Below are positions 30,459 through 35,017 of a stretch of DNA of 52,336 nt, piece after piece. A program made the translations under genes and the position numbers. This stretch comes from Devosia sp. Lineage in GTDB: Bacteria; Pseudomonadota; Alphaproteobacteria; Rhizobiales; Devosiaceae. Under the pieces are notes generated by a model. It was not told the DNA's origin and ran no database searches. It saw only the letters and a program-made list of their open reading frames with translations. Location: NCBI GenBank assembly GCA_041939225.1, contig JBGTUK010000001.1, positions 1 to 52,336 on the forward strand, read 5' to 3'. The number at the start of each line of letters is the position of its first letter. The first letter of the stretch is position 1.

Positions 30459-31460
30459 ATGCGTTTCGGGTACAAGGCTTCAGCCGAACAGTTCGGACCC
30501 AACGATCTGCTCCGTTTTTCGATAGAGGCCGAGCAGGCAGGTTTTGACTCCGTCTTCGTCTCCGACCATTTCCAGCCCTGGAAACACACCGACGGGCACG
30601 CCCCCTTTGCGCCGGGCTGGATGTCCGCCGTGCTGGCCCGTACCGAAAAAATCACGCTTGGCACCTCCGTCCTCACCCCAACCTTTCGTCTGCATCCCAG
30701 CGTGGTAGCCCATGCCTTTGGCACTATGGGCGCCATGTTTCCTGGCCGCGTCATCCTTGGCGTCGGCACTGGCGAAGGGCTCAACGAGGTGCCCGCCACC
30801 GGAATGGCGTGGCCCGAACTCAAGGAGCGCTCGGCCCGGCTGCGCGAGGCGGTCAGGCTGATCCGCCAGCTCTGGTCAGAGGACCGGGTGAGCTTCGAGG
30901 GCGAATACTACAAGACCGTCAATGCCACAATTTATGACAAGCCGGCTGAGCCGGTGCCGATCTATATCGCCGCCGGCGGCCCGCTCAACGCCAAATATGC
31001 CGGCCTCGCCGGCGACGGCTTCATCTGCACCTCGGGCAAAGGCGCCGAACTCTATGTCGATCAGCTCCTGCCCAATGTGGCTGCCGGCCGGGCCGACAGC
31101 TCCCTCAAGGACAAGCCATTCGAGCGCATGATCGAGGTCAAGGTCTCGTTCGACACCGACGCCCAACGCGCCCTTGAGGACACCCGCAACTGGGCCGCCT
31201 TGTCGCTCTCCGCCGAAGAAAAGCATTCGGTCAAGGATTCAGAAGAGATGGAACGGCTGGCCGACGCGCTCCCCATCGAACGTGTCGCCAAGCGCTGGAT
31301 CGTTTCCTCCGACCCCGATGAGCACGTCGCGCAGATAAAGACCTATATCGACTACGGCTTCGACCATCTGGTGTTCCACGCCCCCGGCACCGACCAGAGC
31401 CGCTTCCTTGGGCTCTATGCGAAAGAGATTCTGCCAAGGCTTCGAAAGTTGGTCGGATGA
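30459..31460 (+). CDS. fgd: F420-dependent glucose-6-phosphate dehydrogenase
   Basis: [66 protein letters not shown] and HLVFHAPG, all characteristic of mycobacterial Fgd. Confidence 0.92.
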
Positions 31461-32269
31461 CCCCACGCCTATCTGTCTGGGGCATCACCGGCATCCCCGA
31501 AATCTCCCCTAACGATAACCTCGTTGCGCTGATCGCCGAGGCGATCACGACACAGTCCAACGCCGACCCGGATTTGGCACTGCAATCGGGCGATATCCTC
31601 GTCGTCACCTCAAAGATCGTCTCCAAGGCTGAAGGCATGCAGGTGCCCGCGGCCGAACGCGAACAGGCCATCGCTGCCGACACGGTCCGGGTGGTGGCCG
31701 AACGCGTGCATCCCGGCGGCACCTTCCGCATTGTCGAGACTCGCCAGGGCCTGGTCATGGCCGCCGCTGGCATCGACATGTCCAATGTTCCCGAAGGCAC
31801 CGCCCTGCGCCTCCCCGCCGACCCGGACGCGTCCGCCCGTCGGCTCTGCGAGGGTTTGCGCGACAAGGTCGGACTGGAGATCGGCGTCGTGGTGACGGAC
31901 ACCATTGGCCGCGCCTGGCGTATTGGCCAGACCGACATGGCCATCGGCGCCGCCGGTGTGCAACTGACGGACGATCTGCGCGGTGCCAATGATGCCAATG
32001 GCCGGCCGTTGCATGTCACCCAGGCGGTCATTGTCGACGAGATCGCCGGCGCCGCCGATCTGGTCAAGGGCAAGACGACCGGAATACCCGTTGCCGTGGT
32101 GCGCGGGCTGGGCCGCTACGTTACCGATCTCGACTCGCCCGGCGCCCGTACCCTGAGCCGCACGGGTGATGACGACATGTTCCGCTTCGGGTCCGCCGAA
32201 GCCTATCGCCTTGGCTATGAAGCAGCCATGGCGGAAATGAACTCACGCAAAAAGCAGAAGCAGGACTGA
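31457..32269 (+). CDS. cofE: Coenzyme F420-0:L-glutamate ligase (stand-alone CofE)
   Basis: [59 protein letters not shown]. No C-terminal nitroreductase domain. ATGA overlap with fgd. Confidence 0.92.
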
Positions 32270-32271
32270 CC

Positions 32272-33210
32272 ATGCGTCACCTCGGCCGTCTTTCGTTCAT
32301 CTTGCCCCTCCTGGCCCTCCCCGCCCAGGCTAACGCCTATCCCGTGATCGTGGACAATTGCGGCCATACAATCACCTTTGACCAAGCGCCCGAACGGGTC
32401 GTCACCATCAAGTCAACGGCAACCGAAATGCTGCTTGCGCTTGGCCTTGGCGACCACATTGTCGGCGTCGGCTTCCAGGATGCCCCCCTGCCGCCGCATC
32501 TGGCCCTGGCCGGCGCGGGCCTACCAGTCCTCTCCGACAAATTGCCCAGCCAGGAAGTCGTGCTCGAGGTCGAACCCGACCTCATCTATGGCGGCTGGGA
32601 AAGCAATTTCGCCGCGGATGGCGCCGGTGAGCGCTCGACACTCGCAACGTTTGGCGTCGCCACCTATGTCGCCCCTGCCGCCTGTCGTTCGATCAAACCG
32701 GCCAAGCTGACATTCGACCATCTCTTTGACCAAATCGACGAATTGGGCACCATTTTCGAGGTAGGCGATGCGGCCGCTCGCCTCGTCGCCGATCAGCAGG
32801 CGCTCCTCAAAGCCATCACACCAGACACACGCGAACTGACCGCATTGTGGTATTCTTCCGGCACCAAGACCCCCTATGTGGGCGCTGGCAGCAACGCTCC
32901 GGCCATGATCATGGAGGCCCTTGGCCTGCAGAACATCTACGCCGAAATCGATGAAGGCTGGACCTCGGCTTCCTGGGAAGCCATCGTCGACGCCAATCCC
33001 GATGTTATCATTCTGGTCGACGCCGCCTGGAATTCAGCCGAGCAGAAGCGGACACTGCTGGCCGAAAATCCAATCACCAGCCAGCTCGACGCGGTCATCA
33101 ACCAGCGTTACCTGATCATTCCGTTTCCAGCCTCCGAGGCTGGAATCCGCAACGTCCCCGCGACCGTTGATATGGCCGCGCAACTGGCCAAGCTGACCTT
33201 TGGGGAATGA
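32272..33210 (+). CDS. Type III (iron-siderophore/cobalamin class) ABC substrate-binding protein, putative F420-0 binding protein
   Basis: YPVIVDNCGHTITFDQAPERVVTIKSTATEMLLALGL; GWESNF; starts 2 bp after cofE. Context matches the proposed F420-0 importer family (TIGR03868, from recall). Confidence 0.75.
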   Translation: MRHLGRLSFILPLLALPAQANAYPVIVDNCGHTITFDQAPERVVTIKSTATEMLLALGLGDHIVGVGFQDAPLPPHLALAGAGLPVLSDKLPSQEVVLEVEPDLIYGGWESNFAADGAGERSTLATFGVATYVAPAACRSIKPAKLTFDHLFDQIDELGTIFEVGDAAARLVADQQALLKAITPDTRELTALWYSSGTKTPYVGAGSNAPAMIMEALGLQNIYAEIDEGWTSASWEAIVDANPDVIILVDAAWNSAEQKRTLLAENPITSQLDAVINQRYLIIPFPASEAGIRNVPATVDMAAQLAKLTFGE

Positions 33211-34217
33211 CGATCACGCATCGTCTCTCCCTGCCGGCCCTTACCGTCCTCCTTGTCGTCAGCGCTATCGCTGCGGTCACCTTCGGGCCGGCAGATATCA
33301 CCCCTGGGGAAGTCTGGTCGGTCATCGCACACCATCTCGGTCTTCTCCCAGAAAGTCCGGTTTCGCGACTGCGCGATGCGATCGTCTGGGAACTGCGCTT
33401 ACCGCGCGTGTTGACCGCTCTCGGGGTCGGCGCCGGCCTGGCGGTCTCCGGCGCCGTGATGCAGGCGTTGACCCGAAATCCGCTCGCCGATCCCTATCTC
33501 CTGGGCCTGTCCTCCGGCGCAGCACTGGGGGCCGTGCTTTTCCTGTTGCTAGGCTTCACCCTCCTTATGCCGCTCGGCGCCTTTCTCGGCAGTCTGGGCG
33601 CGCTGGCGCTTGCCCTGCTCATCGCCCAACTCCTGGGAGGCGCCACCCCAAGCCGGGCCATCCTCGCCGGTATCAGCATCGCAGCCCTGGCCTCAGCCGC
33701 CACCTCCTTTCTTATCTTCTGGTCGGCGACAGGCGATAGCTATCGCGAAATCCTGAGCTGGTTGATGGGCACGCTCTCGGGCTCGACATGGTCGGATGCG
33801 GCCCTGGTCCATCTTGCGCTGGTCGCGTGTCTGCCGATCATCCTGGTCAGTGGCCGGGCGCTCGATGCCTTTGCTTTTGGTGACACCGCCGCCGCCAGCC
33901 TGGGGATAGACGTGCCTCGCCTGCGCTGGACCTTGCTGGGGGCGACGGCGCTGCTGACCGGCATCATGGTGGCAATTGGCGGCGCCATTGGCTTTGTCGG
34001 TTTGGTTGTGCCGCATGCCGTGCGCTTGGCGGTCGGCTCGGCGCATCGCAAACTGCTGCCCCATGCAATGCTGGCCGGCGCCATCTTCATGCTCTGGACC
34101 GACACGGCCGCGCGTACCCTGTTCGATCCGCGCGAATTGCCCGTCGGCATTATCACGGCCCTGATCGGCGCACCGGTTTTCCTGGCCATTCTCCTGCGCT
34201 ACCGGAGGATCACATGA
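33207..34217 (+). CDS. FecCD/BtuC-type ABC permease, putative F420-0 importer
   Basis: LRLPRVL, RNPLADPYLLGLSSGA, GAIGFVGLVVPH and ELPVGIITALIGAP; ATGA overlap. Confidence 0.85.
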   Translation: MTITHRLSLPALTVLLVVSAIAAVTFGPADITPGEVWSVIAHHLGLLPESPVSRLRDAIVWELRLPRVLTALGVGAGLAVSGAVMQALTRNPLADPYLLGLSSGAALGAVLFLLLGFTLLMPLGAFLGSLGALALALLIAQLLGGATPSRAILAGISIAALASAATSFLIFWSATGDSYREILSWLMGTLSGSTWSDAALVHLALVACLPIILVSGRALDAFAFGDTAAASLGIDVPRLRWTLLGATALLTGIMVAIGGAIGFVGLVVPHAVRLAVGSAHRKLLPHAMLAGAIFMLWTDTAARTLFDPRELPVGIITALIGAPVFLAILLRYRRIT

Positions 34218-35017
34218 CCCTCTCGGTTGCCGGGCTGTCGGTCGCAAAATCCGGCACGCCAATCCTGACTGATGTGAGCTTCTCGGCTCCGGCAGGCCGC
34301 ATTACCGGGCTGATCGGGCCCAACGGCGCCGGCAAATCCACCCTATTAGCCGCCCTGCTCGGCCTCTTGCAGGGTGAGGGCACCGTTCGCTTCGAGGGCC
34401 ACGACCTGCCCAACATGCGCCGGCGCGATCGGGCACAGCTCCTGGCCATCGTCGAACAGTCCGCTGCCACCGAGGAGCGCCTGAGCGTGCGCGATGTCGT
34501 GGCTCTGGGCCGCATCCCCTACGAGGCGGCATGGCAATCCGAACCCAGTCCATGCGATCAGGCCATCATCGCCCAAGCGTTGGCGGACACCGGCACCACA
34601 GGTTTTGCCGCCAGACGGTTCACCACCCTGTCCGGCGGCGAACAACAGCGCGTGCATGTTGCGCGAGCGCTAGCCCAGCAGCCGCACCTGCTGCTACTCG
34701 ACGAGCCGACCAGCCACCTCGACATTCGTGCCCAGCTTCAGCTTCTCGCACTGCTTCGGCAAAAAGCCGCTGCGGGAATGAGCATATTAGTGGTCCTGCA
34801 TGATCTCAATCTGGCGGCCCGCTTCTGCGACCACCTGGTCGTGCTGGCAAATGGCCGAACGGCTGCCGAGGGGGCACCTACCGATATCCTGACCCCCGAA
34901 CTGCTGCGTACGGTCTATGGCGTCGCCGCCAGGCTGGTCCCCGACAGCGCCAAGGGCCATCCCTTGATCGTCCTTGACGAAGCGATCGCGGAAGACCACT
35001 GGCAATTAACCGATTGA
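34214..35017 (+). CDS. FepC/BtuD-type ABC ATP-binding protein, putative F420-0 importer
   Basis: GPNGAGKST; LSGGEQQRV; LLLDEPTSHLD; LHDLNLA; ATGA overlap. Confidence 0.88.
   Translation: MTLSVAGLSVAKSGTPILTDVSFSAPAGRITGLIGPNGAGKSTLLAALLGLLQGEGTVRFEGHDLPNMRRRDRAQLLAIVEQSAATEERLSVRDVVALGRIPYEAAWQSEPSPCDQAIIAQALADTGTTGFAARRFTTLSGGEQQRVHVARALAQQPHLLLLDEPTSHLDIRAQLQLLALLRQKAAAGMSILVVLHDLNLAARFCDHLVVLANGRTAAEGAPTDILTPELLRTVYGVAARLVPDSAKGHPLIVLDEAIAEDHWQLTD

Follow-up and report, generated by a model that had tools for sequence, protein, structure and literature searches.

A putative uracil-responsive module for F420 salvage and use in Devosia, with a predicted role in reductive pyrimidine breakdown

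The DNA analysed here (the window) is a stretch of 52,336 nucleotides from Devosia sp., contig JBGTUK010000001.1 of assembly GCA_041939225.1. The assembly is 66.7% complete, which limits every negative result obtained in it. The window carries six forward-strand genes related to cofactor F420: a dehydrogenase gene (fgd), a stand-alone F420-0:glutamate ligase gene (cofE), the three genes of a proposed F420-0 importer and a gene for a luciferase-like enzyme of family TIGR03842. Gene identities were assigned by comparing the bit scores of NCBIfam hidden Markov models (HMMs) with their curated cut-offs. The features are the following.

30412..30427, no strand: RutR-type palindromic operator with 2 mismatches to the Escherichia coli consensus, 47 bp before the start of fgd
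30459..31460, + strand: fgd (TIGR03554, 497 bits, cut-off 420; E value of 4e-141 to Rh-FGD1, 5LXE)
31457..32269, + strand: stand-alone cofE, F420-0:glutamate ligase of actinobacterial type, 270 aa (TIGR01916, 223 bits, cut-off 181; motifs; tree and approximately unbiased [AU] test)
32272..33210, + strand: periplasmic binding protein of the proposed F420-0 importer, BtuF/FhuD-class fold (TIGR03868, 420 bits, cut-off 392)
33207..34217, + strand: FecCD-type permease of the importer (TIGR03869, 444 bits, cut-off 437; BtuC and FhuB models below their cut-offs)
34214..35017, + strand: ABC ATPase of the importer (best family TIGR03873, 322 bits, below the cut-off of 372)
35014..35043, + strand: sigma70-like promoter abutting a RutR-type operator (35044..35059), 49 bp before the start of the TIGR03842 gene
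35093..36094, + strand: TIGR03842 luciferase-like F420 enzyme (TIGR03842, 485 bits, cut-off 295; Mer-like fold; exclusion with PreA)
36100..36129, + strand: intrinsic-terminator-like hairpin at the end of the module (13-pair stem and T run; consensus scan only)
29342..30292, - strand: divergent nucleoside hydrolase (PF01156), associated with the module rather than part of its core (a homologue adjoins it in 16 of 80 loci)

Among the first five genes, ATGA overlaps at 31457, 33207 and 34214 link three neighbouring pairs and a 2-bp gap (32270-32271) separates cofE from the binding-protein gene; the TIGR03842 gene starts 75 bp after the ATPase gene. An earlier reading of this DNA from its letters alone (the sequence-only reading) had described the same five genes with their three overlaps and one gap, a stand-alone CofE, and the lack of cofC, cofD, cofG and cofH in the window, all of which stands; none of the four was found among the 44 open reading frames (ORFs) of the window. 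It drew the unit too short, and it overlooked the TIGR03842 client, the likely purpose of this enzyme in uracil/thymine reduction and the two RutR-type boxes. Among the families it had proposed to check, TIGR03554, TIGR01916, TIGR03868 and TIGR03869 score above their cut-offs and TIGR03873 does not.

Fgd keeps the phosphate-binding triad for glucose-6-phosphate: its K194, K255 and R279 align with K197, K258 and R282 of Rh-FGD1, the enzyme of structure 5LXE, which uses only F420. CofE retains the GID-SN, TDT-GR and DE motifs and matches archaeal CofE except at one residue, where a lysine replaces the archaeal glutamate, as in the actinobacterial homologues. The model of the TIGR03842 protein is a triose-phosphate isomerase (TIM) barrel, and its nearest solved folds are the F420-dependent methylene-tetrahydromethanopterin reductases (Mer; template-modelling [TM] score of about 0.8). 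PF00296 is its only domain, and the PydA/PreT-PreA architecture, with flavin mononucleotide (FMN), Fe-S and flavin adenine dinucleotide/NAD(P)H domains, was not found in it.

Because the source assembly is 66.7% complete, the absence of synthesis genes was checked in relatives, using 180 Devosiaceae genomes, 171 of them with a completeness of 90% or more and a contamination of 5% or less. Neither cofD nor cofG was found in any of the 180; run as a control on 14 reference genomes, the same searches gave hits in 3 and 4 of them. No cofC, cofD, cofG or cofH was found in the source assembly either; cofH was searched for in the source window and assembly. In the five complete genomes with the module, cofC and the broad CofD/YvcK Pfam family PF01933 were absent from all five, and no FbiB C-terminal reductase scored above the cut-off. 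The family survey and these five genomes rule out that the third of the genome missing from the assembly conceals synthesis genes.

The genes of F420 use, on the other hand, are widespread. The same 87 of the 180 genomes (71 of the 86 genomes of the host genus) carry cofE and TIGR03842 together with a binding protein that scores 329 bits or more; this protein is above the TIGR03868 cut-off in 84 of the 87, and one TIGR03842 gene is split across two contigs. All 87 keep a dehydrogenase: Fgd scores above its cut-off in 76, and a TIGR03557-type enzyme takes its place in 11, mostly Pelagibacterium (HMM check on 3 of the 11). Around TIGR03842, 53 of 80 named loci carry all six genes and 8 carry five, without fgd. 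No seventh conserved gene accompanies the module in these 80 loci, and the six genes are taken as the unit because the flanking genes vary freely. The use of F420 without its synthesis, proposed for this host by the sequence-only reading, thus extends across the family; the auxotrophy that it suggested is probably conditional on pyrimidine use and not absolute.

The TIGR03557-type enzyme is encoded at L046:7165-8193, L047:12334-13356 and L057:12171-13193, and also at L236:12563-13564. The Pelagibacterium proteins are 63-77% identical to the enzyme encoded beside cofE in actinobacterial importer loci. They score higher on TIGR03885, an FMN-reverted family, yet remain below its cut-off, and the enzyme is probably an F420-reducing dehydrogenase.

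The designation "F420-0 importer" is an existing database hypothesis, already given by NCBI to Devosia proteins. The transporter proposed under this name (TIGR03868/69/73, Micrococcales, structure 4MLZ) has the same fold and is likewise linked to cofE and an F420 dehydrogenase. The Devosia version differs from it by its Gram-negative host, the lack of cofD and cofC, the RutR-type control and an ATPase below the family cut-off; in the alignment with named actinobacterial homologues, the N terminus of its binding protein has no lipobox cysteine. The model of the binding protein (predicted local distance difference test of 92.8) superimposes on the Jonesia denitrificans protein 4MLZ with a TM score of 0.91, a root mean square deviation of 1.4 Å and 49% identity. 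A plasmid search with this protein returned 7 records, all below 40% identity, and a protein atlas look-up gave family-level clusters only.

The fold class of the binding protein is common to siderophore, heme and B12 binders, the importer ATPase also passes the heme-ATPase model NF010068 (264 bits, cut-off 261), and the FMN-reverted family TIGR03885 exists among the relatives of Fgd. The ABC system could then import an iron chelate, heme or B12, both luciferase-like enzymes having reverted to FMN or another cofactor and CofE being a passenger. We regard this as very unlikely: structures with known ligands reach at most about 24% identity and a TM score of at most 0.70 to the binding protein, against 49% and 0.91 for 4MLZ; all 87 module genomes have an intact CofE, and Rh-FGD1 has no cofactor other than F420; a separate, weaker importer paralogue (234-270 bits) occurs without cofE; and independent loci combining cofE, the importer and a luciferase-like enzyme recur in genomes G084 and G105. 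We hold with good confidence that the predicted importer takes up a tailed deazaflavin.

The paralogous importer (TIGR03868, 234-270 bits; L053-L055, L058, L059) is also found in 8 genomes without the module, and is accompanied by a conserved upstream ORF of 200-250 aa that has no Pfam match at 1e-8. The second F420 importer loci of G084 (L044/L051, G084:C1:3626561-3642800) and G105 (L052, G105:C16:48500-55000) encode a proteobacterial-type CofE together with a luciferase-like enzyme of another kind, adjoin peptidase/diaminopropionate lyase or acyl-CoA genes, and look like independent salvage modules for other substrates.

Outside Devosiaceae, the TIGR03842 gene is found with a complete synthesis pathway. 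In 9 of the 80 loci, from Mesorhizobium, Oryzicola, Tianweitania, Aquamicrobium and Rhizobiaceae, it comes after cofG-cofH-cofD, a gene for a CofC-CofE fusion and either fgd or fno, each of these genes having been checked by HMM in one representative. The fusion, of about 455 aa, is found in Phyllobacteriaceae/Rhizobiaceae F420 operons (L121:5415-6782 and kin). In a sample of the order (171 genomes), cofG-H-D-C-E-fno lies directly upstream of TIGR03842 in 9 of 10 non-Devosiaceae loci, and annotated Paracoccus and Leisingera plasmids show the same arrangement. TIGR03842 therefore closes cof synthesis operons elsewhere, which argues that it is an F420 client, and Devosiaceae carry the importer at the place that the synthesis genes occupy in these relatives. 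The client enzymes of the alphaproteobacterial de novo operons (Paracoccus, Leisingera, Mesorhizobium and kin) are 65-87% identical to that of Devosia, and the logic of cofactor supply, recharge and client is shared; the Devosia module differs in carrying an importer and a cofE of actinobacterial lineage instead of synthesis genes.

The distribution of the client relates it to pyrimidine breakdown. PreA (NF006183) is found in 86 of the 180 Devosiaceae and is absent from the source assembly and from 85 of the 87 module genomes: the two systems coexist in 2 genomes, 85 have the module without PreA, 84 have PreA without the module, and 9 have neither. The split recurs within three genera (both/module only/PreA only/neither: 2/69/13/2, 0/5/29/2 and 0/11/6/1). 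These counts ignore kinship and related genomes are not independent, so the Fisher P values overstate the exclusion and were given no weight. Dihydropyrimidinase is present in 165 of the 180 genomes, including 87 of 87 with the module, and 162 of these 165 have exactly one of module and PreA (2 have both and 1 has neither). In the order sample, TIGR03842 was found in 12 genomes, PreA in 64, both in none and neither in 95.

The remainder of the reductive Pyd pathway is retained. The pyd locus of four complete module genomes keeps genes for a RutR-type regulator, an omega-aminotransferase, malonate-semialdehyde dehydrogenase, an M20 carbamoylase (a ureidopropionase-like hydrolase) and dihydropyrimidinase, and the same locus holds preT-preA in PreA genomes and lacks it in module genomes (L156 versus L159). 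In the two genomes with both systems, preT-preA sits at another site. Beyond Devosiaceae, a dihydropyrimidinase gene lies directly upstream of TIGR03842 in Streptomyces (L143), pyd genes are divergent from the cof operon in G327, and on 7 actinobacterial-type contigs the importer is back to back with genes for a C-N hydrolase, dihydropyrimidinase and TIGR03842. The presence of pyrimidine genes beside the module was considered as a conserved feature of Devosiaceae and was rejected, as it is not conserved across loci.

From its profile, synteny and operators, the TIGR03842 enzyme is very likely an F420H2-dependent uracil/thymine reductase that replaces PreT-PreA. Its predicted step, the first of the pathway, would be carried out by a single-domain TIM-barrel hydride transferase with no flavin/Fe-S chain, unrelated to PydA and in contrast to PydA/PreT-PreA or PydAc. 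The PydA forms listed in PMC7332683 are NAD(P)H- and ferredoxin-dependent only (here and below, statements citing PMC-numbered articles refer to portions of those articles). Salvage of F420 could also be combined with a different reaction, in which TIGR03842 acts on another N-heterocycle (purine derived or hydantoin like) or as a dihydropyrimidine oxidase. Chloroflexota have a different luciferase-family F420 enzyme, for which a yanthine reductase function has been proposed (PMC12507026), purine genes belong to RutR regulons (PMC5343134, supplement), TIGR03842 is not beside pyd genes in Devosiaceae, and genomes G021 and G043 carry both TIGR03842 and PreA. The near one-for-one exchange with PreA among dihydropyrimidinase-positive genomes and the adjacency of TIGR03842 to dihydropyrimidinase and C-N hydrolase in Actinobacteria make this quite improbable, and a partner dehydrogenase that reduces F420 speaks for net reduction rather than for an oxidase.

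Rhizobium etli obtains beta-alanine from the reductive pyrimidine pathway (PMC7142369), and the supply of beta-alanine for coenzyme A (CoA) was considered as a reason for the retention of the module. It fits only partly: panD was found in 1 of 180 Devosiaceae, yet panC is present in 2 of 5 tested, so a link of the module to CoA supply is possible but partial. The sole panD among the 180 genomes (G021:C112, L162) shares a 19-kb contig with the displaced preT-preA, which probably places two beta-alanine routes on one island.

RutR-type boxes would connect the module to uracil. The window has three matches to the RutR consensus, against 0.15 expected by chance, and two of them precede fgd and TIGR03842; the first (30412-30427) is also no more than 200 bp away from the divergent gene for the nucleoside hydrolase. 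Both boxes, 16-bp palindromes, keep positions 4 and 13, which are common to all high-affinity E. coli RutR sites (PMC2475637). With at most 2 mismatches to the E. coli consensus allowed, 44 of 54 loci had a box before fgd, and in the other 10 TIGR03842 comes first. TIGR03842 was preceded by a box in 68 of 69 Devosiaceae-type loci and in 0 of 8 Phyllobacteriaceae/Rhizobiaceae loci where this gene is internal to the operon. Boxes also precede preT (7 of 8), and internal genes had 2/64, 0/62 and 0/62. In the genome background, 10 of 1,961 genes had a box, three of them in the window and two at 5'-nucleotidase-family genes. RutR itself was not found in the 67% assembly; its family (PF08362) is present in 3 of the 3 nearest named relatives, and each of the 4 complete module genomes examined for it has an orthologue at its pyd locus. 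The de novo operons carry such boxes in part: one precedes cofG in 9 of 20 loci (L127, L129, L131, L132, L121, L177, L178, L180 and L183), which suggests that uracil induces F420 synthesis in those Alphaproteobacteria. PMC5343134, including one supplement, has no F420 gene terms with RutR in the portions covered.

Taken together, these data make it likely that the six genes are a uracil-responsive module for F420 salvage and use that serves the first step of reductive pyrimidine breakdown. The ABC importer would take up F420-0 or F420-n released by other microbes, CofE would add glutamates to it, Fgd would reduce F420 using glucose-6-phosphate and the TIGR03842 enzyme would hand the hydride to uracil or thymine. 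The dihydropyrimidinase and ureidopropionase of the genome would carry on to beta-alanine, ammonia and CO2, and the RutR-type regulator would open both promoters in the presence of uracil. By its size, F420-0 should pass through porins, which may be too narrow for the longer forms; no gene for a TonB-dependent receptor lies in the module. Since CofC and CofD are missing, the imported molecule would have to carry the phospholactyl link already. The cofactor is bound six to ten times more tightly when its tail is longer, and the three enzymes tested did not bind Fo (PMC5623714), which would give CofE its purpose.

Supply of F420-0 is the weak point of this proposal, because Fo, and not F420, is known to leak from producers: the charged F420 stays in cells, whereas Fo has been reported to diffuse and to occur in supernatants (PMC5623714, PMC11104420). 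The importer might accordingly bring in Fo, with the cofactor completed in Devosia by an unrecognised route free of CofC and CofD; the role in uracil breakdown would be unchanged. Actinobacterial importer loci that carry cofD and cofC-like genes resemble Fo salvage: cofD lies at 7 of 79 actinobacterial importer loci (4 of 4 tested above the cut-off) and cofC-like genes at 6, and cofG/H were found at 0 of the 31 loci with at least 6 kb downstream. Fo may therefore be the ligand in some Actinobacteria. For Devosia we consider Fo import unlikely, as the five complete module genomes contain no gene of the CofD/YvcK family, no cofC and no FbiB C-terminal reductase above the cut-off, no seventh conserved gene is at hand, and CofE, present in 87 of 87, needs the lactyl carboxylate, attached only by CofC/CofD as known (PMC8498797). 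The actinobacterial-type loci with cofD and no Fo synthase, six of which also have a cofC-like gene, are L218, L219, L223, L224, L236, L255 and L264.

Apart from the kinship of the genomes, the retention of F420 by its producers and the cofD-bearing actinobacterial loci, further observations weigh against salvage of F420 for uracil reduction. The importer ATPase falls short of its own family (TIGR03873, 322 against 372), and re-called ORF starts lower the count of boxes before TIGR03842 to 61 of 68. Module and PreA are found together in G021 and G043. Pyrimidine genes are present at 6 of the 37 actinobacterial importer loci having at least 5 kb upstream, so that the importer is not pyrimidine specific in general. 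Finally, ureidopropionase, mmsA and rutR were not found in the 67% complete source assembly, and the pathway of the source itself is thus incomplete as assembled.

The sequence-only reading had called the operon actinobacterial in type and probably acquired horizontally, and gene trees (cofE, fgd, TIGR03842 and, in a quick version, the binding protein) bear this out for some genes only. Devosiaceae CofE sequences form one clade (support 100/99) within actinobacterial CofE, and a 100/100 branch separates them from proteobacterial CofE (43 rows; L215 was too short and was left out). Forcing them together with proteobacterial CofE was rejected (AU test; P = 0.005). Beyond Devosiaceae, the binding protein has its nearest named relatives in Micrococcales (Isoptericola, 56%; Microbacteriaceae, 51%), and the quick tree places it within the Micrococcales-type family, with no exact sister resolved. 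In contrast, Fgd falls among alphaproteobacterial Fgd sequences, a 100/100 split setting it off from nine actinobacterial rows, and TIGR03842 lies in a proteobacterial clade next to Phyllobacteriaceae copies. The module is thus a mosaic, since the actinobacterial cofE disagrees with the proteobacterial fgd and TIGR03842; cofE comes from Actinobacteria, namely Micrococcales, and the importer probably from the same source, and the fgd and TIGR03842 trees rule out an actinobacterial origin of the whole operon. We infer that actinobacterial cofE and importer genes replaced cofGHDC/E in a proteobacterial cofGHDC/E-fgd-TIGR03842 operon. The "actinobacterial" label of metagenome contigs follows from their binding proteins and a GC content of 58-78%. 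The acquisition is old and fixed: codon score, GC content and GC at third codon positions of the six genes fall inside, or on the margin of, the range spanned by 25 other genes of the window, and this host-like usage, with the presence in 71 of 86 genomes of the genus, rules out a recent horizontal island or contamination.

Cobalamin salvage by BtuCDF follows the same logic, a cofactor precursor being imported and then finished. BtuCDF is of the same transporter class as the Devosia importer, whose permease scores below the cut-off of BtuC models. In uric-acid clusters of Chloroflexota, a luciferase-family F420 enzyme, the putative yanthine reductase, has likewise been proposed to stand in for a PydA-like ring reductase, in a different pathway and on a different substrate (PMC12507026). 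A review of F420 describes no uptake of the cofactor, leaves as an open question why Proteobacteria have it and states that no physiological role has been tested outside Actinobacteria (PMC8498797, in the portions covered). Our literature search found no paper on F420 uptake or salvage, with subscription journals largely outside it and a prior mention not excluded. It found none naming TIGR03868 with F420, TIGR03842, CPS_4043, TIGR03869 or TIGR03873, which older papers or TIGRFAM comments may mention, and nothing related for Devosia with F420 among titles and abstract beginnings.

On these genomic grounds, it is fairly likely that about half of Devosiaceae dropped the NAD(P)H-dependent uracil reductase and rely on the F420 of their neighbours for pyrimidine breakdown. 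If so, F420 would be a cross-fed vitamin with a dedicated importer, joining B12 as a traded cofactor, and TIGR03842 would be a third, F420-dependent kind of dihydropyrimidine dehydrogenase, with a third chemistry of pyrimidine ring reduction. Uracil catabolism under RutR control would then be a main reason why many Alphaproteobacteria make or import F420. Through the module, the importer and TIGR03842, both of them predictions from databases, share a single selectable phenotype in culturable, non-pathogenic strains, namely a predicted growth on uracil nitrogen that depends on a supplied deazaflavin, and an F420 importer with a simple F420H2-dependent heterocycle reductase would serve F420 biocatalysis.

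Downstream of the module (36274-42190), the window encodes a BMP-family nucleoside-type ABC transporter and a cytosine deaminase (NF005748, above the cut-off), an arrangement that would supply uracil to the module and is found in 7 of the 80 loci, in close relatives only. Upstream, at 28815-29306 on the - strand, a 163-aa ORF has a weak HNH-like match (NF045808; E value of 2e-6, far below the cut-off) and adjoins the module in 7 of the 80 loci. Further away (23990-26840), genes for elongation factor P, EpmA and a lysine-2,3-aminomutase-like EpmB constitute an ordinary beta-lysylation cluster.

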